Source of the DNA: an uncultured Lentisphaerota bacterium
Lineage (GTDB): Bacteria; Verrucomicrobiota; Kiritimatiellia; RFP12; UBA1067
NCBI GenBank assembly: GCA_946413265.1
Contig: CAMKJU010000006.1
Coordinates: forward strand, 1,659-65,658
Direction of reading: 5' to 3'
DNA length: 64,000 nucleotides
Positions 3,607 to 26,413 of the stretch are shown in pieces. Within the stretch, counting starts at the first letter, position 1; each line of letters starts with the position of its first letter. The position numbers were made by a program, and so were the translations under genes. The notes under the pieces were generated by a model, which saw nothing but the letters and a program-made list of their open reading frames with translations, was not told the origin of the DNA and made no database searches.

Positions 3607-6423
3607 TCACTCCTCGAACCAGCCGGGCTTGGCGATGTGGGGGATGAGGTCGCGGCGGAACAGCGAGACCTGATGGTCGTTGACGTAGCGTTGCACTTCC
3701 CTGGCGAATTCCGTGTCGTTCGGACGGCACCCGCCAACATCGGGCAACGGCTGCGGCTGCGGCCCCGCGATCCTGCGCTGAACATCGCGTTTGCCCCAGT
3801 CGTCCTTTGAGATAACGCGTCCGGCTACCTTGAGCTTCTCCGCGTGGGCGATCACCTTGTCCAGACGGTTTATCGCCACGGCAACCTGGGTTTCCGATAG
3901 ATGCGCCCTGAGGTCGGCAATGTATTTCTCGCGGGCATCGCCGCTCTTCTTCGCAATGAGCTCGTCGTAGAGTTCCGCGTCGATGAAGTCCGGCGCGCGC
4001 GTGACATGGCTTCCGGTCGCGACAGTCAGGCAATAGTGCATCTCCGGCACCGTCATCTTCGACGTGTCAACGATAATCATGCCGTTGCCGAGCTGCCGGA
4101 CTCCCGGATCGTGGTTGAGGCGGCGGGACTGCGCCCCAGCGGCCTCGTTCGGGTACAAGTTCTTCTTGACCGCAGTGTACGCCGACACGAATTTGGACGC
4201 GTGTTTTCCGTAGAGCCTAAAGACGCCGGGGGCGACGAGGAAATTCCCGAAGCATGCGTCGTTGTCGATGCCCTTCAGCGAAACCTCGCCCTTGTCGGAC
4301 ACGCCCAGCAAGTAGTTGTGGTGATGGCGGTCGCCCTGCCCCGTCAACAGGTCGAACCATTCGAGGCGGTTGGACTTGCGCATGATCTCGCCCACCACCT
4401 TCCCGTACTGCTCATCGGGAAGGTTCTTGATCTGCGTCGCGGTCAGGCTACCCGGAGCCACCTTCTGACCTGCCTTTTCGTAGTCCGACACTTCACAGCC
4501 GTGGGCCTTCTCCATGTAAATGCCGAACTGGCCATCGTGCGTGCCGACCGACGTCTTCACCATGACGTCGCCAAGCCCGAAGGCGTCCGCCGTCCTCTGC
4601 GCGGCCATGTTGAGCTGCGCAACAAGCAGCGTGTTGCCGTAGGAGCCTTTGGCAAGCTGCAAACTGCCAAGTCCCTGCCGGCCGAATGCCTCGGGCTTGA
4701 ATATCTGGGACGTGCCGTCCTTAAAGTCGAGCTGGTGGACGGTGTTGACCTTTCCGCTGCCAAGCAGCTTTGTGGAAACGACGTTGGAGTCGTCGAGCGC
4801 CGGGTCGGCGTCCTCGTCGGGAAGTCCAGCAATGCGCGTCTCGACGATCGTCGTAACGGCGGCCTTGCCCTCGAACACGGCGGCAAGCGTCTTGTTGGTG
4901 AGGAACGTGGAAGTATCCCGACCGGCCGCGTTCCGGAACATCTGGACGAGGTGCGCGGTCTGGGTCGAGACGCCGCCGATTCCGCTGTACTGTGCGTTGA
5001 CAGCAGCGAGGTTGGAAGGAAAATTTTCAGGTTTCGTAAACGACGCTATCGCCTTCCGGAACTCCTTGACCATGTCCGGGGTACAGGCGTTGCGGTCTTT
5101 GCGCGACAGAGAGTCCAACAGTGTCTGCAAGGATTCCGTCCCTTCGAGCTGGAGAATGGCAATCATGTCGCGGTCGCCGTATTCTCCATTGCTGAGACTC
5201 GCCAGTTCCTTCTCGACCGCGGAGGAAAGACTCGCCAGTTCACGGGCGAGCGTCTCCATCTTCAAGATGGAACTGTTGTCGCGCTTTTCAATGACCTTGA
5301 GCGCCGCGTCTCGGAGCATCTTCTGCGTGTCGATCGCCGCCATGAGCGCGGGGAACATCTTCCTTGTGAGCGGCTTGAACTTATCCTGCAGAATCGGGAT
5401 GTCCGGCGGTGAGAACGTCATGTCGATGAAGTTGCGTAGCGAACCCATCGCGACTTCGCGCTTAATGTCGTTGAGACGCTTGGTGAGGTCCGTTAGGACG
5501 CCCCGCGCCGACTCGAAGAGCGAACGGTCGAGCGGCGTGCCCTTCGCGGCGTACGTCGTCTCCGCCCGCGCGAGGGCGTTGTACGCCTCGTCGATCTGGC
5601 GGCGGATCTTCGTGATCTCGCCGTCGGAAAGCTGGCGCTCCTGCACGGACGCGAGGTCGTCGATGCGCTTCGCAAGCGGCATGAGGGAAGTGCGGAAGTC
5701 GGCGGCGATCTTCTCCGAGCCGTGCATCTTAAGCGACTGGCTCGGGATGAGCGATTCGAGCGTCTTGTCGAGACGGGCCTTGATTGTCGGATCGTTCCCG
5801 ACCTTCTCCGCCATGTCGGCGAAGTCGCAGACGAGCGTCTGGAGCTCCGAGGCTCGGCGGTCGGTCTGGAACATCGCCTCCTCAAGTGCGCCCCGTGCGC
5901 GGGCGTTCGCGCTGGCCGGCAGGGCATTCAGCGTCTTGTAGAGCAGTTCCGAAAGGTCAGCCTGCGCGTCGAGGGCGGCCTTGACCGCCTTGCCGACGGC
6001 GCTATTCGCGTCCCAGTCGAAGCGGCCTTTCTCGTCCTTGACGAGGGCATCGGCGATCTGGCGGCCCGAGAACTGGTTGATGGCCTGGAATGACGTCTGG
6101 GCCTTCTTCGCGGCGCCTTCGATCGCCTTGCGCGTCGCCTTGTCGAGACCGGCGGCGACGAGGGTGTCCTTGAGGGCCTGGACGTCAACCGGCGCCGACG
6201 CCGTCTTCGCCGCCCTGAGGAGCATCGTGTCTAGGTTGGCGGCGAGCCGGTTCGTCTGGTCAAGCCGAGTATCCGCAACCTGAACCTCGGCCTTGTGCCC
6301 CTCGACGTTCAAACCGCCGAGCTTGTCCTTGCCCAGCTGGACATCCTCGACCTTCGGCAAATCAAAGGTCTGCGGCACCTTCATGCCGCTTCCGATTGCG
6401 CTAAAACCGCCATGTCCGCTCAT
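3607..6423 (-). CDS. Large helical protein with C-terminal PI3/4-kinase-like domain; candidate secreted effector kinase
   Basis: Gly loop LLGSGKVNTV, Lys in IFKPE, catalytic DLLTGQGDRHHHN, metal-binding GIDND. No signal peptide or TM segment. AAGGAG RBS. Confidence 0.75.
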   Translation of the reverse strand: MSGHGGFSAIGSGMKVPQTFDLPKVEDVQLGKDKLGGLNVEGHKAEVQVADTRLDQTNRLAANLDTMLLRAAKTASAPVDVQALKDTLVAAGLDKATRKAIEGAAKKAQTSFQAINQFSGRQIADALVKDEKGRFDWDANSAVGKAVKAALDAQADLSELLYKTLNALPASANARARGALEEAMFQTDRRASELQTLVCDFADMAEKVGNDPTIKARLDKTLESLIPSQSLKMHGSEKIAADFRTSLMPLAKRIDDLASVQERQLSDGEITKIRRQIDEAYNALARAETTYAAKGTPLDRSLFESARGVLTDLTKRLNDIKREVAMGSLRNFIDMTFSPPDIPILQDKFKPLTRKMFPALMAAIDTQKMLRDAALKVIEKRDNSSILKMETLARELASLSSAVEKELASLSNGEYGDRDMIAILQLEGTESLQTLLDSLSRKDRNACTPDMVKEFRKAIASFTKPENFPSNLAAVNAQYSGIGGVSTQTAHLVQMFRNAAGRDTSTFLTNKTLAAVFEGKAAVTTIVETRIAGLPDEDADPALDDSNVVSTKLLGSGKVNTVHQLDFKDGTSQIFKPEAFGRQGLGSLQLAKGSYGNTLLVAQLNMAAQRTADAFGLGDVMVKTSVGTHDGQFGIYMEKAHGCEVSDYEKAGQKVAPGSLTATQIKNLPDEQYGKVVGEIMRKSNRLEWFDLLTGQGDRHHHNYLLGVSDKGEVSLKGIDNDACFGNFLVAPGVFRLYGKHASKFVSAYTAVKKNLYPNEAAGAQSRRLNHDPGVRQLGNGMIIVDTSKMTVPEMHYCLTVATGSHVTRAPDFIDAELYDELIAKKSGDAREKYIADLRAHLSETQVAVAINRLDKVIAHAEKLKVAGRVISKDDWGKRDVQRRIAGPQPQPLPDVGGCRPNDTEFAREVQRYVNDHQVSLFRRDLIPHIAKPGWFEE

Positions 6424-6447: not shown

Positions 6448-6477
6448 GTTTACACCTCTGCCGGGAAAAGGTTACAC
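6448..6477 (-). promoter_or_regulatory. ECF-sigma-like promoter box, copy 1
   Basis: Minus strand reads GTGTAAC-cttttcccggcagagg-TGTAAAC (16-nt spacer), ending 24 nt before the ATG at 6423. Shared with 28494-28525 and 30358-30387. Confidence 0.65.
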
Positions 6478-16637: not shown

Positions 16638-18476
16638 TCAGCATCCGCCGCCGCACGATCCAGCGAGCTTCAACGCCCATGTGGCGACATTCCGTATCAC
16701 CGCAGTGCCATAAGGCACGCCGTTGACGACTGCACCGCTCACATTCACCCTTAGTTTCCTGGGTCTAGTGCCGTCCGTGACGTAGATGCTGAACGATCCC
16801 TTGAACGTGCCGTTCTTCTGGACGAACGTCACGTTGAGGTCGGAAATGCCCTTGGTGCCCGCCCACTTCCTACCGTTGGAAATCACGGCGTCATCCACCG
16901 GCGAAACCACGACCTGCTTCCCACCGACTCCTGCCGCCGAACTGAAGCCCTCAAGCTGAAGATACATCGTTTCGGGAACTACGCCCGCGCCGGAATTTAC
17001 TGAAAAGATCGCGTCTGGCGACCAGACACCTGCGGATTTCGTCGTCTTCCACCCTGAGACGCCCTTCACCGCGGAAAGTTTCCAGTTGTCGAACTCAAGC
17101 AACATCGAAAAGACCCTGTTCTTGCCGATGACGGGCACCAGCACCTTGCCGTTCTCGCCGAACAGAGCCTGTGCGGAAACCATGACCTTGCTGCCGTCGC
17201 CGAGGTAGCCAGTCACCTTGACCTTGCCCTTCGTGACCGTTGCGACGGAAAACGCCGAATACCCGCTTCCACCATCTCCGGCATTTGCCAGTGCAAAAGT
17301 CCAAAAGTTCTTCTGGAATGTCGCGGCGCGGGCTGTTGCGGCGGCGTCCTTCGCCCTGAATGGATTCCGAGCACCCTGCACCGTATATGTGGCCGTACCG
17401 TCATTGTAGGAGCCGACCAGGCCATCCGTGCCGATCGTAACGGAGGCGGTGACTTGCGAACCAGTTTTCGACAGCAAGATCCTTTCGCCTTCCGTCCCGT
17501 CGGTGACGCCCGTCAAGGTAGTCGCGCGTCCGCCGGAGATCTGGATGCGGCCCGTCACCTTAATCGCTCCCGTACGCGCCTTGCGAGCGGTCTTGAACGT
17601 TGCAACGCCCATGGGAACGCCACTGGCGTCCGTCAGCACCGAATCGTACGTCTGCGCGGCGGCACCCTCGACCCCACCCACGCCGGGCTTGACAAAAAGG
17701 TCACTGCTGCCGCCAGTCCTAATCGCCTCTATTTCGTCTATTACGTAGCTCAGTCCAACGGCGGGATCGGTTCTCATGCTGTAACTAAAACGCCCGGCCT
17801 CATTGCCCTCGGAATCTATTACGATGATCGTGGGATATCCCACACGGCGGTAGACAGTAGTCGGGTTAGCCGCATAGACGGCAAGGTTCGTCGTCATGCC
17901 GTCAGCGGAAATCTCCACGAGGATGTTGTTGTTCGTGGTGGTGGCTGAGCCCTCGGAGTGCATGAGATTCTGAAATTCAAAGCGCTTGACATACTCGTCT
18001 GCAATCTGCTGCGGCGTCCAGTCGCCAATGCCGTTCGCCGCCCGGTACGCGGGATCCCAAAGCCAAGTCCACATCGTATGGCCGTCCCGGTACGGAAAAT
18101 CAAGTGCCGCAAGATAGTACCCGCGCTCGGCCACATACTGCTTGAAGGCGTTCTTTTGAAGGACGTTTGCCTCAAGCGACTGGCAGTGCGGACACCACCA
18201 CATGCCGGCGAAAAGCAGAAGCGTATACTTGCCCTCCGCCTTTGCCTTCGCAAGGGCTCCTTCGTAGTTGAACGTCCACTCTCCGGGATTGACCGCGCTC
18301 CACTTCGGCACCAATGCGGAAGGACCAAAGTTGTATGGAGTGCCGGGCTTGAAGTCTGGAGCCCAGTCTGCTTTGACAGTCATAGCGCAGGCAAGCATGA
18401 TTGCGAAGACGTTTGCCGCAATACTGCAAGATGGCACTTTCCCTGACCACGTACTTGAAAACGATTTTTCTTCCAT
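16638..18476 (-). CDS. Exported thioredoxin-fold protein (WCPHC) with beta-rich C-terminal region
   Basis: Motifs GEWTFNYEGALAKAK, WWCPHC, ALDFP and GYPTIIVID; ends SCGGGC. Confidence 0.8.
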   Translation of the reverse strand: MEEKSFSSTWSGKVPSCSIAANVFAIMLACAMTVKADWAPDFKPGTPYNFGPSALVPKWSAVNPGEWTFNYEGALAKAKAEGKYTLLLFAGMWWCPHCQSLEANVLQKNAFKQYVAERGYYLAALDFPYRDGHTMWTWLWDPAYRAANGIGDWTPQQIADEYVKRFEFQNLMHSEGSATTTNNNILVEISADGMTTNLAVYAANPTTVYRRVGYPTIIVIDSEGNEAGRFSYSMRTDPAVGLSYVIDEIEAIRTGGSSDLFVKPGVGGVEGAAAQTYDSVLTDASGVPMGVATFKTARKARTGAIKVTGRIQISGGRATTLTGVTDGTEGERILLSKTGSQVTASVTIGTDGLVGSYNDGTATYTVQGARNPFRAKDAAATARAATFQKNFWTFALANAGDGGSGYSAFSVATVTKGKVKVTGYLGDGSKVMVSAQALFGENGKVLVPVIGKNRVFSMLLEFDNWKLSAVKGVSGWKTTKSAGVWSPDAIFSVNSGAGVVPETMYLQLEGFSSAAGVGGKQVVVSPVDDAVISNGRKWAGTKGISDLNVTFVQKNGTFKGSFSIYVTDGTRPRKLRVNVSGAVVNGVPYGTAVIRNVATWALKLAGSCGGGC

Positions 18477-18591
18477 AGCGAATACGCCTCTTTCTTACCT
18501 ATTAAGGGTTGCGAGATAGTATACCACAAAATTCATCGTCTGCTGCATTGAAAACACCTGTCATTTGCAATTGGGATTTTCTATACCCCCG

Positions 18592-20376
18592 TCAAAGCGA
18601 CAACACCAGCCCCACCCAACCAGGCAGATACGCCTCTGCGCCCTCCGTCACCAATACTCCGCCGTCAGAAGAGTCAATGCGCCCGTATACATCCACGTAG
18701 CGAGCGGCGAACTCGCCAACCACCATTGCGAACTTGCACGATCTGCGCAGGCTTTCAGGCACGGCGTCTAGCGGCATGGCGGGGGAAAGGAAGATCAATT
18801 CCGCCGCCCTCGGCGCCTTGCCCTCTTTCCAGAGCTTCAAGTATTCATCGCAAAGCCTGCCGGCCACCGCTAGTCTCCTGACGCGGGGCGGAAGGTCTGA
18901 AAGTTTCTGTACATACCCTAGCGGCTTCGCCCCTGGGTGCGCAGAATAGAAGTACCTTATTTCCTTTGGCGCAAAAAGCCATCCAATCGAGTACCTGTCG
19001 TCGGCAATCCAGACATCAGGATTGCGCGATCCCACCAAGACCCTTCCGCCATCGGCCTTTATCGGCAGCACGGCAAGACGCGAAGGCTCGCGTCCGGCCC
19101 AGTAGAACGCCACGCAGACAGCCAGCGAGACAACTGCGGCGGACACTAGAGGCACAATGTACTTCTTCGGCATCTTCCATGGCCGCGATGCTGCGAACGG
19201 CCATAACGACGCGACGGGTATGATCCACAGCGACCAGACGTGTATAAGCGGGTTGAACACCGCCGCCAATGCCACAGCAGAGAATTGGGCCAACGGCAGC
19301 GGCGAGCCGCCGACGACGGAAAAGCGAAACAAAGCAAACAGCGCGCCAAACCAGATTAGCCCCCAGAGAAAACGGCCTACCCACCCGACCTCCGTCATGT
19401 AGGTGAGATGGTCGCTGTCAAGCGTAGGGGTGATATAATTACTGGAAAGCGGCTGATACCAGTCGCTGTACGCGCGCCCAGCCCGCGTCCCGCCCCACCC
19501 GCCTGGCGAATCGACCATCATGCGCGGCACGAACGGCCACATTTCAGAACGTTCCACGGCGACTAAAGAGAGTTTCTTCGAAAACCTTCCACCAAAGTCC
19601 ACGCCGACGAAGAAAGCCACTGCGGCGGCAATCATTAGCATGGAAACTAGCGCAGCCCTTATTTTCCCGCCACGCCTGAAAAATCTAAATCCAAGCATCA
19701 ATAGCGATCCAAGTGCCAAGCCGAGAGCTGCGCCGCGCCCGCCGGTCTTCACAAGGAAGTACGATGCCGAAACGAAAGCCACAGCACCCGCCACAACGAT
19801 GATAGCCGCAACTATCTTATTTCCGCGGCCAAACAGGAAGGCAAAAAGGCCTAGCAACGCCAACTCAGCGAGAAGCAGCGCTGCATGGTTTGGATTTACG
19901 TAAAACAGCCGAAGACGATTTCCGGTAAATTTTTCCACGACGGATTCGCGGGCGTCCTCCTCTGCACCCTCCCACATCGTCGGGATTTGCCCAGGAATCA
20001 CCGGTTCATCGTCAAACTTCACATTCAGCCGCTTACCCTGCGATGAAACCATCGAAAACGGCCTTCCCTTGCGGAACGTGTAGCTCGCCGATGATCCAGG
20101 CTCGCGAACGGTCATGTCGCCTGTCGGCTCCCTCACCACGCTCCATCCACCGGGGCCAACGATAGTTCCATCGCGCCAGTGCCTGCGAAACTCCACCATT
20201 CCCGTTCCAGGTACGTAAAGCCGGAAGAAGTTTGCGCCGTCCATAGGCGCAAAGTACATCTGCATGAACCTCTCGGCCTCGGACTGCGCACCGACTCCCG
20301 CACCGCCATCTGCGATGGCTGCAGGAACTGCCACGAACGTGGCAACGAGACAGACAAGAAACGCGAACTTTTTCAT
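18592..20376 (-). CDS. O-antigen ligase / O-oligosaccharyltransferase-like membrane protein
   Basis: Start MKKFAFLV at 20376 (ATGA overlap). Wzy_C-type motifs NPNHAA, TGGRGA, RSEMW and HLTYMTEVGWVG. Confidence 0.7.
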   Translation of the reverse strand: MKKFAFLVCLVATFVAVPAAIADGGAGVGAQSEAERFMQMYFAPMDGANFFRLYVPGTGMVEFRRHWRDGTIVGPGGWSVVREPTGDMTVREPGSSASYTFRKGRPFSMVSSQGKRLNVKFDDEPVIPGQIPTMWEGAEEDARESVVEKFTGNRLRLFYVNPNHAALLLAELALLGLFAFLFGRGNKIVAAIIVVAGAVAFVSASYFLVKTGGRGAALGLALGSLLMLGFRFFRRGGKIRAALVSMLMIAAAVAFFVGVDFGGRFSKKLSLVAVERSEMWPFVPRMMVDSPGGWGGTRAGRAYSDWYQPLSSNYITPTLDSDHLTYMTEVGWVGRFLWGLIWFGALFALFRFSVVGGSPLPLAQFSAVALAAVFNPLIHVWSLWIIPVASLWPFAASRPWKMPKKYIVPLVSAAVVSLAVCVAFYWAGREPSRLAVLPIKADGGRVLVGSRNPDVWIADDRYSIGWLFAPKEIRYFYSAHPGAKPLGYVQKLSDLPPRVRRLAVAGRLCDEYLKLWKEGKAPRAAELIFLSPAMPLDAVPESLRRSCKFAMVVGEFAARYVDVYGRIDSSDGGVLVTEGAEAYLPGWVGLVLSL

Positions 20377-20783
20377 TCGCTTCCGATTCCAAACTTGCCG
20401 GCCACAGGAATCTTGACGTCGGCTGGCATGACAATCTTCCATGTACCGTCGTCATTCGACATAAAGCCAAGGCCCGGATATTCCATCGAAAGGTTCGTCA
20501 TGGCCACGGCAATCGGCTCCAGAAGCTCTGACGGTTTCATGTCCTTGCTACCCACCGTTATTGCACAATCATTGGCATTAGTCGTCACCTCAAATTTCAC
20601 GGCAGGATTGTCAAGCCCATCAAACCCGGCGCACGCACGCACGATCGCAACGGCAAATTCAGCCTTGCGCTCCAGTGGCGCATCGCCCAGCGCGACGAGC
20701 TTTGGCTGCGAATCGCCGCAGCCTGTAAGGATGGTCAGGGCCGCAATGCCGGACACCAAGGTAAAAACACGCATCGCCTTCAT
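20373..20783 (-). CDS. Putative lipoprotein
   Basis: Lipobox LTGC after a hydrophobic stretch; translationally coupled to both neighbours. Confidence 0.7.
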   Translation of the reverse strand: MKAMRVFTLVSGIAALTILTGCGDSQPKLVALGDAPLERKAEFAVAIVRACAGFDGLDNPAVKFEVTTNANDCAITVGSKDMKPSELLEPIAVAMTNLSMEYPGLGFMSNDDGTWKIVMPADVKIPVAGKFGIGSE

Positions 20784-22369
20784 TTTGCGCCTCCATTTGC
20801 GCTCTTCTCATATCGGCCGCCCTGAACCGTGCATTCGCGGATGGACGTCGGATATTCGGCATCGCCCCAAATAGCCTTCGTCCCTCCGTACGGCACAATG
20901 GTGCCCTGGCCGCCGTAAATCTTCAGTACGGCCGACACGTAATTCTTCGCGGCGGATTTGAACAACGGAACAACACAGGAATTTTCCGCGTCAAGCATCG
21001 CAAACGCAGTGCCAGTTACCTTCTTGCCGTTTGGAAGCGTCCCACCCCAGTTGACCCTGCCAGCAGAAGTAATTTTCTTGACGTAAATAGTCCCTACGCC
21101 AGAATCTTCCGCCATGCTTACGGTATACGCGCCGACGAATGCGTCTGCGTACCCGCCGGTGCCGACCTTCACTCCATCCGGCGAAGCGATCGGTGAACCC
21201 AGCGCAGAATCCGACAAAACGGCCTTCAGCCGACCATCGCTCGCGAGTTCAAGGTAAAGCGTGCGGCCTCCCGATGTGAGCGTCGCAAACGCCCTCCCTC
21301 CTTCAATGTCCGTCCATGCCCCGGAAAACGTTGCCCTGCCGCGTTGCAGACTGGAATACTTTGCCCTCACCCTGTTGCGGGCGGTGGCGGCAAATTCAAG
21401 CGTCCCGACGGCACTTCCCGACGACAAGAGCGGCACCGTGGCCTTGAGGGCGCTGCCTAACATCGCGCAGCCTCCCTGCGACACATCGTTTGCCGCCGCC
21501 ACGTTGAACGAGAATGTTATGTCGGGGCCTGCGTACAGTACGCCATTGAGCTTCTGCTGAAGCGAAACGACGTAAGAGTACACTCCGGCTTTGCGGGCCG
21601 TTCCCGAAAGCGACACAAGGTTGTCCTTGCACGTGAGCTTCACCCCAGGCGGAAGGCTGCCCGATGTCTTTTTCATCACAACTTTTGAGCCGACCTTGAC
21701 ATTGTACACGGTCTGTGGAGACAACTCCTTTGCCGCGTTCAAGCCCACGAACAGCTTCAAGTCGTATGCGAGCTTTGTGGTCACGGGATCCGAATACAGC
21801 ATCTCGGCGTGCGCCGAGATATCAGGAACCGATGTGAAATCGTATTCGCCTACAACCGATTCAATCGAGCCAATCAACTGCGCGGCAAGCGACCCGCTCT
21901 TCACGAGCATCTCCCCGTCGCGCCCGTTGAACGTCCTGTAAAGTTCACTGTCCCTTTGAGGCGCGTAGCCGTAGCGGTTCCAGTAGACCGCCATATACGG
22001 GAACCCGGCCGCCTCAGACGGTTTGGAAAAACCCGAGGCGTCACCCTTGGAGTTGTTCGTCGTGAAGACCATCAACATCCCGTGCGTGCGCTGCCATGCA
22101 AGGAACTCGTCCGAAAGGCAGGCCGTCTGCAGCAGTTCGCACTTGCCGCATGACAACCCTCCGTAGAAAACAAGCAGCGGGACGTTGTATGCGTTCGCGG
22201 CCGCAAGCGCGCCGCTGAAGTTGGAGTTCCATTCACCCAGCCTGAGGGCTCCATCTGAGACCGGCATAAGCACCGCCGCGCGCGACAGCTCTCCGTTCGC
22301 CGATACGGCTACGGAGAGCGCGGCCGCCATGGCCGCTCCAAGACAGTTCTTCCTGAAACTCCAGTTCAT
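20780..22369 (-). CDS. Exported thioredoxin-fold protein (CGKC) with Ig-like (He_PIG-like) segment
   Basis: Signal peptide; GEWNSNFSGALAAA, SCGKC and GFPY; SGSLPPGVKL...LSGT Ig-like motif. Confidence 0.75.
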   Translation of the reverse strand: MNWSFRKNCLGAAMAAALSVAVSANGELSRAAVLMPVSDGALRLGEWNSNFSGALAAANAYNVPLLVFYGGLSCGKCELLQTACLSDEFLAWQRTHGMLMVFTTNNSKGDASGFSKPSEAAGFPYMAVYWNRYGYAPQRDSELYRTFNGRDGEMLVKSGSLAAQLIGSIESVVGEYDFTSVPDISAHAEMLYSDPVTTKLAYDLKLFVGLNAAKELSPQTVYNVKVGSKVVMKKTSGSLPPGVKLTCKDNLVSLSGTARKAGVYSYVVSLQQKLNGVLYAGPDITFSFNVAAANDVSQGGCAMLGSALKATVPLLSSGSAVGTLEFAATARNRVRAKYSSLQRGRATFSGAWTDIEGGRAFATLTSGGRTLYLELASDGRLKAVLSDSALGSPIASPDGVKVGTGGYADAFVGAYTVSMAEDSGVGTIYVKKITSAGRVNWGGTLPNGKKVTGTAFAMLDAENSCVVPLFKSAAKNYVSAVLKIYGGQGTIVPYGGTKAIWGDAEYPTSIRECTVQGGRYEKSANGGAK

Positions 22370-22381
22370 CTGCACCCACGC

Positions 22382-23905
22382 CTACTTGATCGTGAACGTG
22401 AACTTCTCGTCGCCCTGACGGCCGCCGCCGATGGCGTTGGGCGCGTAGCCCGTGCTGTAGATGACGCCAGACGACTTGTACGTCTTGCCGTTCAGCTTGT
22501 ATGTGGCGGCGACCTGGCCCTTGGAGGCCGTACACCTTATGCGGGCGTTGTAGTCGTTTGCGCCGGCGGCGATCTTGCGCTCGCTGGCGGTGACGGGAAC
22601 GCTGATATATCCCGCGCCGACAGTGCCGAACGTCTTTCCGTTCATGCCCGCGATCAGGCCCTTGTTCCAGAACGAGCCTTCAACGGCGTCAAAGGTCTGC
22701 GAGCCATACGAGACGCTGCCGCCAAGCGTGCCGTCGGCAAAAAGCGCACACCCCACGTTCACGCCGGCGCGCGTGCTTCCGTGCGCGAAGCGCACATTCC
22801 CGCGCCCCGCCCAGCGCGGAACGTATGCGCTGACAAACGCCGCCGGGAACACCGCGCTCTCGCAGTTGCCGGAAATCTTCGTGGTGTTCGAGATCTTCCC
22901 GTTGAACGCGATCCTGCCCGTAGTACCGACCGTGGCCGTGGCCCAGCCGCCCTGCGTGGGGGACGCCGACGAGTAGAAGCCGACGTTCCAGGCACCCTTC
23001 CATGTAGCATCGGCCTTGTCTGCGACCTTGCCATAGACCCTGCGCCCGGAATGCGTGCCGGACCAAATGCCCGTGCTGGTATCGTATGTGAGGTTCAGCG
23101 CCGACGACCCCGTAGAAAGAACCCCGTCCGACTTCACTACGGAACCCCTCAGCGTCGTCGCAACGCCGCCTTCCTGGATCTTGGCAGTCCACCTGCCGCG
23201 CGCCGCAACCCGCAGCTGCGCGGATGCCACGATTTCATCGCTGCCGTTGAAGAAGAAGAGCGCGTACTTTCCCCTTGGAACCTCCGTAGACGACACCACT
23301 GCGCCGGACTGCGTGGAAGACGACGTAGTTTCCGTCGTGGTTGCGCTTGCCGCAGGCGCTACCGCCGTGGGCACCCATCCCGAGGAGGTCGGCGCGATCT
23401 CGGCGATCGATGCCGAAAGATACTGGTAGAGCGCGGGGCCACTAGAACTGACCGGACGTGTTTCATACGACCACCCAGCGTAGCGCTTTCCATCCGGCTT
23501 GATGAGGATTACCTGTGGATAGCCGCTATCGCCCATCTCGTACTTCAAGAAGTAATTTCGAAAGTAAGTCTCAGAAACGTTGCCGTAGGCGGACTCCGAC
23601 GGCCACTTGTTCAGGAGGACCATGTAGAACTTGTAGCTCGCCACGATGTTGGCAAAGTTGTCAGTGTTGAGCGTATTCCTGATGAACTGCATGCAGTGCT
23701 GGCATCCATCGCCAGTGCTACTGTCGTTGATCATGACAAGCAGAATCGGAAGCCCCGTCGTTTTTGCGGCCGCAAGCACGCCTTCCATGTTGCGAGTCCA
23801 CTGGTTGGGTTCCGTTCCTGTACCCACCGTAGGCAGAACTGCCGCCGTGGCGCTGGCGGCGTACAAGACGGCGGCTGCCACAATGCTCTTGACTATTGAT
23901 TTCAT
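22382..23905 (-). CDS. Exported thioredoxin-fold protein (CQHC)
   Basis: Signal peptide; NQWTRNMEGVLAAAK, GCQHC and GYPQVILIKPDG; Ser/Thr linker then a beta-rich C-terminus. Confidence 0.78.
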   Translation of the reverse strand: MKSIVKSIVAAAVLYAASATAAVLPTVGTGTEPNQWTRNMEGVLAAAKTTGLPILLVMINDSSTGDGCQHCMQFIRNTLNTDNFANIVASYKFYMVLLNKWPSESAYGNVSETYFRNYFLKYEMGDSGYPQVILIKPDGKRYAGWSYETRPVSSSGPALYQYLSASIAEIAPTSSGWVPTAVAPAASATTTETTSSSTQSGAVVSSTEVPRGKYALFFFNGSDEIVASAQLRVAARGRWTAKIQEGGVATTLRGSVVKSDGVLSTGSSALNLTYDTSTGIWSGTHSGRRVYGKVADKADATWKGAWNVGFYSSASPTQGGWATATVGTTGRIAFNGKISNTTKISGNCESAVFPAAFVSAYVPRWAGRGNVRFAHGSTRAGVNVGCALFADGTLGGSVSYGSQTFDAVEGSFWNKGLIAGMNGKTFGTVGAGYISVPVTASERKIAAGANDYNARIRCTASKGQVAATYKLNGKTYKSSGVIYSTGYAPNAIGGGRQGDEKFTFTIK

Positions 23906-23959: not shown

Positions 23960-25159
23960 CTACTTTACTCTCTTTACAAGCCTACGTCTCTTACCCGGTC
24001 CCGACGAATCCCACAGCGGAACCTTGCTGTTGATCTTGACTTTGGCGACAAGCTCCTGAAATGTCGCCTTCGTCAAAGCCTTCATCTTGATCGACTCGAT
24101 GTACCCCTGCGCCTGCTTGGGCGAGAACTCAGGATCCAGAAGATCCTTCTCAACCACGATTTCCGCCATCTCCACTGTTGGCCCGTTGTCCTCTTCCGCA
24201 GCATTGCGCTTCAGCAGCCGAACGATATACCATGCCTTCGGCGTATCGATAACACCGCTCACCTCTCCATCCTTGAGACCGACTAGCGCTGACCACACCT
24301 GCGTGGGCAAGTCGTCCTCCGCCACACGGGCAGGACGCTCATCCGCCTCGTCCATAACGACGCCGCGCGTGGAGGAACTCTCGCTGTCGCTCCACAGCTC
24401 CGCCGCCTCGCCAAATTCCATCCCCCCCTTCAACTTGACGAGCATCTCCGACATGAAAGCCCGCCTCTGCAAATTGGTCGCTGTAGTCGCGAGATTGGCG
24501 GAATGCCTGATGCCAATCATCTTCGCAATCTCCCTCTCGTCCGTCTTGCAAAGGGAAACCATCTCCTTTTCCTTGTACGCGAGCCAGTACAGGGCATTCG
24601 TGAGATTATGCTCGTAAAACGACTCCCCGCCGTCCATCAAGGCCTGAAGCGACTTCCCAGTATCGCCCATCTGGGCATATCCCTCTCTAGCCTTTGCACG
24701 GTATTCCTCAAATTTTTCGGGGGCAACCGTGAGGCCAATCCGTTTCGCCTCAACGGCGAATACGGCGTGTTCCATGTAGTCCTTCAGAAGCTTGCGCAAC
24801 CGCATATTGTAGGCAATCTTCTTTACTGCGGCATTCCCCTCCATCTGCATGTCAGGACGGTCGATGCCAGAACAGAGAACCTCGACGTGCCGCCGCAGAA
24901 GTCCCCATTTCAGCGAATCCCAGCCCTCTATTTCCACAAGCACGTCATCGTCCTTAAGTTTGGACAAAATGCTCTCCGTACTTGTTTCCGCAGCCGCCGG
25001 CTTCTTTCCCGTCATTGAGTAGACATTCCTGCCGACCTGACGCGCATTGTCGAAAGCCCTGGAAATGCCGCTTTGCGGTTTCGGCGCAACCGTCTGCGCA
25101 CAAACCGAAAAGGACAACAGCAATAGCACCGATAGTGTATGTGGTTTGAAGTTGGACAT
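23960..25159 (-). CDS. SurA/PrsA-like parvulin peptidyl-prolyl isomerase chaperone
   Basis: Signal peptide from MSNFKPH (25159); motifs FGEAAELWSDSESSSTRG and GEVSGVIDTPKAWYIVRL. Confidence 0.75.
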   Translation of the reverse strand: MSNFKPHTLSVLLLLSFSVCAQTVAPKPQSGISRAFDNARQVGRNVYSMTGKKPAAAETSTESILSKLKDDDVLVEIEGWDSLKWGLLRRHVEVLCSGIDRPDMQMEGNAAVKKIAYNMRLRKLLKDYMEHAVFAVEAKRIGLTVAPEKFEEYRAKAREGYAQMGDTGKSLQALMDGGESFYEHNLTNALYWLAYKEKEMVSLCKTDEREIAKMIGIRHSANLATTATNLQRRAFMSEMLVKLKGGMEFGEAAELWSDSESSSTRGVVMDEADERPARVAEDDLPTQVWSALVGLKDGEVSGVIDTPKAWYIVRLLKRNAAEEDNGPTVEMAEIVVEKDLLDPEFSPKQAQGYIESIKMKALTKATFQELVAKVKINSKVPLWDSSGPGKRRRLVKRVK

Positions 25160-25269
25160 CTTGGAAATCGCCTTATTCGGTAAAGAAAACGGGTGGCATA
25201 GAGATTGTTCTCTACCCACCCGTCCTGCACGTATCAAGCGTGCATCCTTTCAGATTTTCTCAAATCTGA

Positions 25270-26353: not shown

Positions 26354-26382
26354 ATTGTATCAAAACTTGCTCCCGCACGCAA
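26354..26382 (-). promoter_or_regulatory. Sigma70-type promoter of the Cys-rich protein operon
   Basis: Minus strand TTGCGT-N17-TACAAT with extended TG, which implies a leader of about 290 nt. Confidence 0.6.
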
Positions 26383-26413
26383 GGGGAAAATGAAAAAAAT
26401 TTCATACACATAA

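Follow-up and report, generated by a model that had tools for sequence, protein, structure and literature searches.

Three effector-like genes in a 64-kb stretch of DNA from a rumen Kiritimatiellae bacterium (the window, by which the whole stretch of 64,000 nucleotides is meant) are each preceded by the same bipartite sequence element, and the question raised by this locus is which factor reads the element and which genes stand under its control. In an earlier inspection of the letters (the sequence-only reading) the element had been taken for the promoter of a sigma factor of the extracytoplasmic function (ECF) class, controlling a secretion regulon in the manner of the hrp box, and it had been suggested that the motif could be used for listing the effectors of this organism. 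As far as sequence can show, this suggestion is supported by the present analysis. We consider it probable, with good confidence, that the motif is the promoter of an ECF sigma factor encoded in the same genome's type III secretion system (T3SS) gene cluster, and that the regulon consists of translocators and effectors and not of the secretion apparatus. The host genome is a metagenome-assembled genome (MAG) of 4.70 Mb in 275 contigs with a GC content of 61.5%; the relatives searched comprised 24 genomes from its genus and a further 16 from elsewhere in the order. Contigs, genomes and loci are denoted by C, G and L numbers, respectively.

The bipartite motif and the genes behind it

All three copies of the motif were found on the minus strand, at the positions given by the sequence-only reading. 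The copies and the genes behind them (target genes) are listed below, with scores from the position weight matrix (PWM) described further on.

6448..6477 (read from 6477 to 6448), minus strand: motif copy 1, GTGTAACCTTTTCC...TGTAAAC, with -35-like element TGTAACCTTTT and -10-like element TGTAAAC; PWM score 36.0 bits
28494..28525 (read from 28525 to 28494), minus strand: motif copy 2, GTGTAACCTTTTCC/TGTAACCTTTTCC...CGTACAC; PWM score 35.0 bits at offset +2
30358..30387 (read from 30387 to 30358), minus strand: motif copy 3, GTGTAACCTTCC/TGTAACCTTCC...CGTAGAC; PWM score 35.8 bits
3607..6423, minus strand: target gene 1, behind motif copy 1, encoding a 938-amino acid (aa) orphan protein with no Pfam family
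26414..28468, minus strand: target gene 2, behind motif copy 2, encoding a 684-aa orphan protein with no Pfam family
29048..30325, minus strand: target gene 3, behind motif copy 3, encoding a 425-aa orphan protein with no Pfam family

The distance between the end of the motif and the start codon, for which the sequence-only reading had given 24-32 nt, was measured as 24 nt for copy 1 (ATG at 6423), 25 nt for copy 2 (28468) and 32 nt for copy 3 (30325), and each of the three ATGs is preceded by a Shine-Dalgarno sequence. The letters AGGGCA run on after copies 2 and 3, and GTAGACAGG stands just 3' of copy 1, both as noticed before. Written as GTAAC-Nx-YGTA, the spacer is 16 nt long in copies 1 and 3 and 18 nt long in copy 2. 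The three proteins had been called non-homologous, and this holds, because they give no mutual BLASTP match at E<=1e-3 and belong to no Pfam family. The pattern GTAACC-N15-17-YGTANAC matched three times in the window and not once in all of 100 shuffles. When the 10-mer GTGTAACCTT was searched alone with at most one mismatch, three matches were again obtained in the window, a number that 11 of 100 shuffles also reached, so that this result is not significant. Upstream of the three target genes the minus strand showed no sigma-70-type consensus.

In the host genome the pattern GTAAC-N16-[CT]GTA.AC had 17 matches, whereas its reversed-pattern control had none, and the earlier expectation that the motif would exceed background frequency is thereby borne out. 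With spacers of N15, N17 and N19 there was no match; of the other spacers in the genome, N18 gave two matches (one of them copy 2), N14 three and N25 one. A PWM was built from the 17 seed sites, which makes the genome scan with it partly circular; the scan returned 24 sites of at least 25 bits, and the next distinct site scored 21.4 bits. Two of the 24, C53:21354 (27.4 bits) and C85:1621 (26.8 bits), were dropped as imperfect boxes with no convincing gene 3' of them, which reduces the count to about 22. An ATG with a Shine-Dalgarno sequence that opens a reading frame of at least 100 aa was present 15-70 nt 3' of the motif at 17 of the 23 sites having an open reading frame (ORF) record, as compared with 390 of 20,000 random positions (1.95%). 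The six failing sites comprise two mis-called starts, one ORF of 63 aa, one 24-codon remnant followed by a CesT gene, and the two dropped sites. At the 24th site, C138:94, the gene is cut by the end of the contig, hence the missing ORF record. It had been remarked that no copy precedes a housekeeping gene; none of the 24 sites stands before a recognisable one, housekeeping promoters not having been surveyed systematically. With AAC in the -35 element, a CGT-like -10 element and a fixed 16-nt spacer, the motif has the features of an ECF-type promoter.

Type III effectors evolve fast, are mostly devoid of recognisable domains and are nearly invisible in uncultured bacteria. In a Pfam scan of 19 target proteins, 17 had no family over the curated cut-off (one of these with a sub-cut-off match). 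One target is an SseC-family translocator (PF04888, E 3.6e-17); its gene has that of a TPR class-II-type chaperone just 5' of it, and the first gene of this translocator operon is headed by a second copy of the motif. Another target, a 1465-aa protein (C138:2130-6527; L024:2133-6527, minus strand), contains a kinase-like stretch at residues 990-1058, with 27.0 bits for APH (cut-off 23.2) and 24.8 bits for ABC1 (cut-off 22.9). A feature search of the Atlas with the 425-aa target returned unnamed clusters only, apart from a similarity of 0.77 to an NleG-type cluster, which does not count as evidence. CesT chaperone genes flank two targets, one in the window and one on C72; in the window this gene separates target 3 from target 2, and the -35 box of copy 2 shares letters with its stop codon. 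Two further features accompany the targets of the window.

28520..29014, minus strand: gene of a CesT-family type III secretion chaperone, 164 aa (PF05932, 28.5 bits, cut-off 22)
26366..26383, minus strand: terminator-like hairpin with a T run just 3' of the stop codon of target gene 2; a consensus match only

The targets form paralogue families, in which common N-terminal modules of 120-180 aa are combined with differing C-termini. A paralogue of target gene 1 (35% identity over 438 aa) at C8:45285 has a motif copy of its own, the N-terminal 130-180 residues of target 2 are common to two motif-preceded proteins on C104 and C72, and a paralogue of target 3 on contig C53, 51% identical, also stands behind a motif copy. 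Modules such as M..I(N/D)...F..F..FA were seen joined to unrelated C-termini on C8, C138, C17, C57, C196, C104 and C72. To judge from the sequences, this sharing of N-terminal modules resembles the terminal reassortment of effectors. At C72:15383-16094 (L027) a motif is succeeded by what remains of an effector N-terminus, 24 codons long (MKVSIDTIRSLDASKTY...stop), and then by a CesT gene, a second motif and a full-length paralogue, and this layout looks like the trace of a rearrangement among effector 5' ends. Overall, the targets look like the usual type III substrates, and they are likely to be injected.

Some observations of a different kind were made at these genes. Behind motifs at C2:67610-67873 and C5:47614-48056 (28.2 and 34.4 bits) stand two small ORFs (63 and 124 aa), each with a strong ribosome-binding site. 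A contig assembled from a DNA run (X4, depth 3.1), in which the spacer of copy 2 is also 2 nt short, joins position 26975 to 28417 and thus skips 1441 nt of the 684-aa gene, which suggests a strain variant of the effector locus of target gene 2. Directly upstream of the translocator operon, on C31, there is a gene of a hybrid histidine kinase with a receiver domain (L028:6810-8660, minus strand); this kinase is a possible upstream sensor of the T3SS regulon. Elsewhere in the window (16638-23905, minus strand) three large paralogous proteins with Thioredoxin_7-like N-terminal stretches, one of them over the Pfam cut-off, are encoded; an O-antigen-ligase-like (Wzy_C) membrane protein is found among them, and a PPIC-type rotamase gene follows (23960-25237).

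The injectisome cluster, its sigma factor and a small predicted partner protein

The single FHIPEP gene of the genome is located within an injectisome gene cluster on C11. Secretin, FHIPEP, Yop-YscD_cpl, YscJ_FliF, FliH, T3SS ATPase, YscO and Bac_export_3 were detected in this cluster over the Pfam cut-offs. The cluster thus encodes SctC, V, D, J, L, N, O and S, which make up an injectisome core when SseC, encoded elsewhere, is included. SctI, SctK, SctP and SctQ gave weak matches only (SctK, SctP and SctQ below the cut-offs), and the 244-aa ORF ahead of sctS owes the label sctR to its position only.

An ECF sigma gene had been anticipated near the T3SS locus, and one was found inside the cluster itself, directly after sctS. 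Since this gene is the last of the C11 cluster and its ATG follows the sctS stop codon by 10 nt, the sigma factor is probably made together with the apparatus. The 164-aa protein contains Pfam Sigma70_r2 and Sigma70_r4_2/r4 and nothing else, that is, it has regions 2 and 4 only. It scores 89.9 bits with the general ECF model TIGR02937 (cut-off 42.9), and none of the 25 best NCBIfam models for specific ECF subfamilies reaches its own cut-off with it. Its nearest solved chains are the ECF sigma factors SigE, SigL and SigW (E 4e-12 to 1e-9). The parallel with HrpL that the sequence-only reading had drawn can be kept with regard to the general ECF model, whereas kinship with HrpL itself is not established, no specific ECF model having been reached.

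The motif was not found in the apparatus cluster, where no site of at least 7 bits occurs in C11:1-20000; a loose sigma-54-like pattern had one match. Enrichment of the motif, which had been expected before apparatus genes as well as before chaperones and orphan ORFs, is thus confined to orphan ORFs, the translocator gene and chaperone-linked genes. Because the apparatus cluster is without a copy, the regulon would consist of translocators and effectors, which is closer to that of Bordetella BtrS than to that of the hrp box. Of the proposed analogy with the hrp box, it is therefore the tie between an ECF-type box and a T3SS that stands, and not the composition of the regulon. Downstream of the sigma gene, C11:17932-23135 (L019, L020) contains a type II secretion F gene, which has a promoter of the TATAAT type, and several prepilin-type (N_methyl) genes come next.

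Orthologs of the sigma factor, called at E<1e-45 or in two halves, were detected in 21 of the 24 genomes of the genus and in 2 of the 16 from the rest of the order. FHIPEP was present in 20 of the 24 and in the same two of the 16, and the motif pattern in 21 of the 24 and, with two matches, in one of the two FHIPEP genomes from the rest of the order. The 14 genomes without a FHIPEP match are also without a sigma ortholog and have no motif match except for G034, whose single match lacks the T-tract and looks like chance. These relatives are kin and not independent samples, for which reason the co-occurrence figures are descriptive and do not amount to a test. Over the 41 genomes including the host, the motif had 163 matches as compared with 24 matches of the reversed control; in close relatives it gave 22-31 matches. 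A second, stricter pattern, TAACC-N15-YGTANACA, under-counts diverged lineages and was used solely for its clean controls. Of the sites sampled in seven other species, 20 of 20 have an ATG downstream, which in 18 cases lies at +32 to +70. Many N-termini encoded behind these sites resemble those of the host targets. The motif also precedes the sctE orthologs in G001, G012 and G023.

In many relatives the motif directly adjoins the sigma gene. It stands 0-45 nt after the sigma stop codon in G002, G005, G006, G013, G021 and G024, in the MAG loci L039, L052, L053, L059, L060 and L061, in G012, G023 and G032 (the latter a member of a different family, its locus having 47% GC), and at class or phylum distance in L095, L099, L100 and L101 (locus GC 52-66%). 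When 13 loci from across the phylum, with GC contents of 46-70%, were lined up, the motif was found between the sigma gene, or its expected place, and a gene encoding a protein of about 85 aa. In this line-up GTAAC, which served as the anchor, is present in 13 of 13 loci, the preceding T in 11 of 13 and YGTA at the 16-nt offset in 12 of 13, and spacers and flanks vary; at one of these loci, L102, the sigma gene itself was not found by tblastn. The gene order sctR-like gene, sctS, sigma is kept at the loci whose sigma is at least 69% identical and at one with 61% identity; at four other loci sctS lies 2-4.5 kb upstream of sigma. In two genomes a sigma ortholog was found in two pieces (G021:C147:767-1303 and G024:C132:11042-11578), which could reflect a frameshift or faulty assembly; in G024 an intact copy is also present on a different contig. 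One genome, G008, was considered as a T3SS-positive control without sigma and motif, and was rejected, its contig breaking off some 1.3 kb short of the place that the sigma gene has in its relative G018.

The gene of the protein of about 85 aa lies on the driven side of the sigma-proximal motif. Besides the host, 23 genomes have it, and in 18 of these it adjoins the sigma gene; in G040 it is placed immediately upstream of sigma with a motif-like site before it. In the host this slot after the C11 sigma gene lacks a small-protein gene, though one is there in other lineages; the host gene is found directly after sctE in a motif-preceded operon. The protein was detected in 21 of the 24 genus genomes and in both injectisome-bearing genomes of the rest of the order, and was not found in the 14 genomes without a FHIPEP match; when 301 genomes were drawn evenly from the phylum, 15 of them had it. 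It starts with MNI(D/N) and ends with a C-terminal segment, RDDxLGxL...PPxMPxF, that is rich in invariant residues. The middle is variable, of low complexity and poorly conserved, and is read as disordered. Nine members of the family gave no match in Pfam, and a profile of the family gave none in the PDB at E<=5. An Atlas feature search produced sub-threshold leads only, the best of 0.89 to unnamed clusters; a value of 0.85 to a Campylobacter family named 'flagellar-dependent secreted protein' is likewise a lead only.

Structure prediction for the sigma factor together with this protein gave an ipSAE of 0.77 (0.79, 0.77 and 0.77 in the separate runs), whereas the best control had 0.01. The mark in question was reached by 58 of 80 solved complexes and by 2 of 110 mismatched pairs, a calibration that applies only roughly because the prediction was supplied with our own alignments of both proteins. 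At least 70% of the contacts are common to the runs, and the predicted local distance difference test (pLDDT) value of the partner is at least 57. In the model, residues 51-84 of the partner contact residues 3-40 (region 2), residues 99-106, and residues 124-164 (region 4) of the sigma factor. It is in such a region 2/region 4 manner that anti-sigma factors hold ECF sigma factors. The prediction supports binding of the small protein to the sigma factor and makes it a candidate anti-sigma factor. There are indirect hints of export, namely that its MNI(D/N) N-terminus is like that of other targets and that its gene belongs to the translocator operon of the host.

Alternative explanations and the proposed regulon

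The motif could be an ECF-type promoter and be read by another ECF sigma factor of the genome than the one linked to sctS. There are 17 sigma70_r2 loci in the host genome, no motif copy lies near the T3SS-linked sigma gene there, and promoters of different ECF sigma factors can look alike and overlap (PMC5758882). None of the 17 loci shares a contig with a motif site, and therefore no other sigma factor is linked to the motif by position, whereas the ortholog of this particular sigma gene is directly followed by the motif at no fewer than 19 loci, in relatives that reach out to phylum distance. Moreover, among the 16 genomes of the order outside the genus the ortholog is found only where an injectisome is present. 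With these observations the involvement of another sigma factor appears unlikely. A slightly smaller probability is given to the explanation that the boxes are the site of an activator that works with the housekeeping sigma factor, for example an AraC-type protein with a TPR chaperone as in the pairs MxiE-IpgC and InvF-SicA. The translocator operon does contain the gene of a TPR class-II-type chaperone, it is adjoined by that of a hybrid histidine kinase/response regulator, and conservation extends beyond the -10-like box. The strict 16-nt spacing between AAC and CGT/TGT and the fixed short distance to the start codons speak against an activator site, as does the lack of sigma-70-type -35 and -10 elements at the three window sites. 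No AraC-type gene was seen among the cluster ORFs scanned, and the architecture, including the T-tract after AAC, fits ECF promoters.

That the motif is a relic of duplicated 5' regions among paralogous effector genes, with no regulatory role, would be in line with the many targets that belong to paralogue families with common N-terminal modules, and with the 24-codon 5' remnant behind a motif copy on C72. The three window genes and several other targets are non-homologous and yet have the boxes, the boxes and their spacing are kept while spacers and leaders differ, and the boxes persist across loci of 46-70% GC. We hold this explanation to be very improbable.

Several points weigh against the assignment of the motif to the sctS-linked ECF sigma factor. 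The conserved letters run on beyond the -10 box (ACAGGG), for which an ECF -10 element by itself does not account, and the spacer of copy 2 is 18 nt and not 16 nt long; one DNA-run contig (depth 3.1) lacks 2 nt at 28503 and thus has a 16-nt spacer, this variant being represented by a single contig. The assignment was drawn from synteny and from co-occurrence among related genomes, and the genome holds 16 other sigma70_r2 loci. In the host and in G020 and G022, whose sigma factors are 98-99% identical, a type II secretion F gene and no motif follows the sigma gene, and in G009 and G024 (90-93% identical) the contigs end soon after sigma, so that the downstream region is unseen. Because the near genomes either have no motif at this place or have contigs that end, the adjacency of sigma gene and motif rests on more distant genomes. 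Five sigma-bearing genomes, G010, G011, G018, G023 and G032, have 0-3 matches of the pattern, with diverged variants shown for some of them; G011, which is 69% complete, has none. Conversely, G003 (88% complete) has six motif matches, and neither sigma nor FHIPEP was found in it. As to the small protein, the result for the complex expresses the model's own confidence and is not a measurement. Finally, the promoter role of the motif is deduced from its sequence and position. In three RNA-labelled runs only 5-7% of the sampled words were present, and the contigs assembled from these runs show no 5' ends. They are short, at least 99% identical and all within coding sequences (26526-26719, 27171-27322, 28847-28997, 28983-29140 and 29104-29371); they may be DNA carry-over and are neutral with regard to any start site.

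Taking these points together with the evidence above, we favour the reading in which the motif is the promoter of the T3SS-linked ECF sigma factor. The apparatus cluster, sigma gene included, would be transcribed from a separate promoter, so that the sigma factor is made alongside the apparatus, whose genes would themselves be outside the control of the motif. With core RNA polymerase, the sigma factor would recognise TGTAACC(TTTT) at -35 and (C/T)GTA(n)AC at -10, 16 nt apart, and transcription would begin a few bases 3' of the -10 element, probably within the conserved ACAGGG. About 22 unlinked transcription units would be switched on in this way, namely the translocator operon (SseC-type translocator, TPR chaperone and others) and about 20 orphan, modular, chaperone-associated likely effectors, among them the three in the window. 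The protein of about 85 aa, itself driven by the motif, may clamp the sigma factor between regions 2 and 4, as modelled, and thus provide negative feedback. If it is exported, the transcription of substrates would be coupled to secretion. A wider interpretation is put forward only tentatively, and we think it rather less probable than its opposite: the small protein would found a new anti-sigma family exported by the injectisome, an independent checkpoint of the FlgM/BtrA type; the module of sigma factor, promoter and anti-sigma factor would be ancestral to the scattered injectisomes of Kiritimatiellota; and by one motif the effector repertoires would become accessible in uncultured gut bacteria whose targets are probably eukaryotes of the rumen.

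Known systems

The practical use of the motif is that a promoter signature of 28 nt picks out about 22 candidate secretion substrates in the host genome, an approach of the kind that the hrp box allowed for plant pathogens. The biology of abundant uncultured gut bacteria becomes testable by this means, for example the question of which rumen eukaryote is injected. ECF control of type III secretion is already known, and after HrpL and BtrS this would be a third lineage with such control, with an unrelated partner protein that is a probable anti-sigma factor; this candidate is the most novel element of the system. In the accessible literature on type III secretion, ECF sigma factors or effectors in Kiritimatiellae and Verrucomicrobia no description of such a system was found, though the supplementary tables of the ECF reclassification may list the group of the sigma factor; the accessible parts of the related literature do not treat T3SS regulation outside Chlamydiae.

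With respect to the promoter, the ECF sigma factors of Bacillus subtilis (sigma-W, -X, -M and -V) provide a comparison, their promoters having tGAAACnTTTt at -35 and CGTA or CGTC at -10 (PMC5758882). The motif described here, TGTAACCTTTT-N-(C/T)GTA, is similar to these in that a T-tract comes right after AAC. It differs in that T is often found at the first position of the -10 element and in that conservation continues as AC-AGGG, and the regulons differ as well, those of B. subtilis being concerned with cell-envelope stress and the present one with secretion substrates.

In the FliA/FlgM system the late, exported substrates are transcribed under a sigma factor that is encoded with the export apparatus, and the anti-sigma factor, which is small and disordered, leaves through the same machine. 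The same logic may apply here, the protein of about 85 aa being small, with a middle read as disordered and a conserved C-terminal segment that is predicted to bind. There are differences: FliA is a group-3 sigma factor with region 3, whereas the present sigma factor consists of regions 2 and 4 only. No sequence relation to FlgM is seen in the small protein, which has no Pfam match.

The hrp box of Pseudomonas syringae, Erwinia and Pantoea, with the halves GGAACC and CCAC, also drives apparatus operons. The present system shares with it an ECF sigma factor encoded with a T3SS, a bipartite box that can be used for effector lists, and a similar -35 half (GTAACC as compared with GGAACC). It departs from it in the -10 half (YGTAnAC as compared with CCAC), in an apparatus cluster that has no box, in the presence of a candidate anti-sigma factor and in a sigma factor that passes the general ECF model only. 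HrpL belongs to ECF32, which in the 2021 reclassification is a T3SS-associated ECF group (PMC7826278), and it is described as being under transcriptional regulation, without an anti-sigma factor (PMC8999054).

In Bordetella, the genes dependent on BtrS include the translocator genes bsp22 and bopN and the unlinked btcA-bteA pair of a chaperone and an effector, most apparatus genes show little dependence, and the anti-sigma factor BtrA/BspR is encoded next to BtrS and exported through the T3SS (PMC7498569). The present system is alike in that an ECF sigma factor appears to be dedicated to the injectisome, with the motif at translocator and effector genes and none in the apparatus cluster, and in that a candidate anti-sigma gene adjoins the sigma gene in 18 relatives. 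It is unlike in that the sigma gene stands last in the apparatus cluster, whereas that of Bordetella is in a separate btr locus, and in that the small protein has no Pfam or PDB relative. The one system is from Betaproteobacteria and the other from Kiritimatiellota, and the two are likened here by their logic. With this qualification, BtrS/BtrA of Bordetella appears, by analogy, to be the closest known counterpart of the way in which the present system would work.

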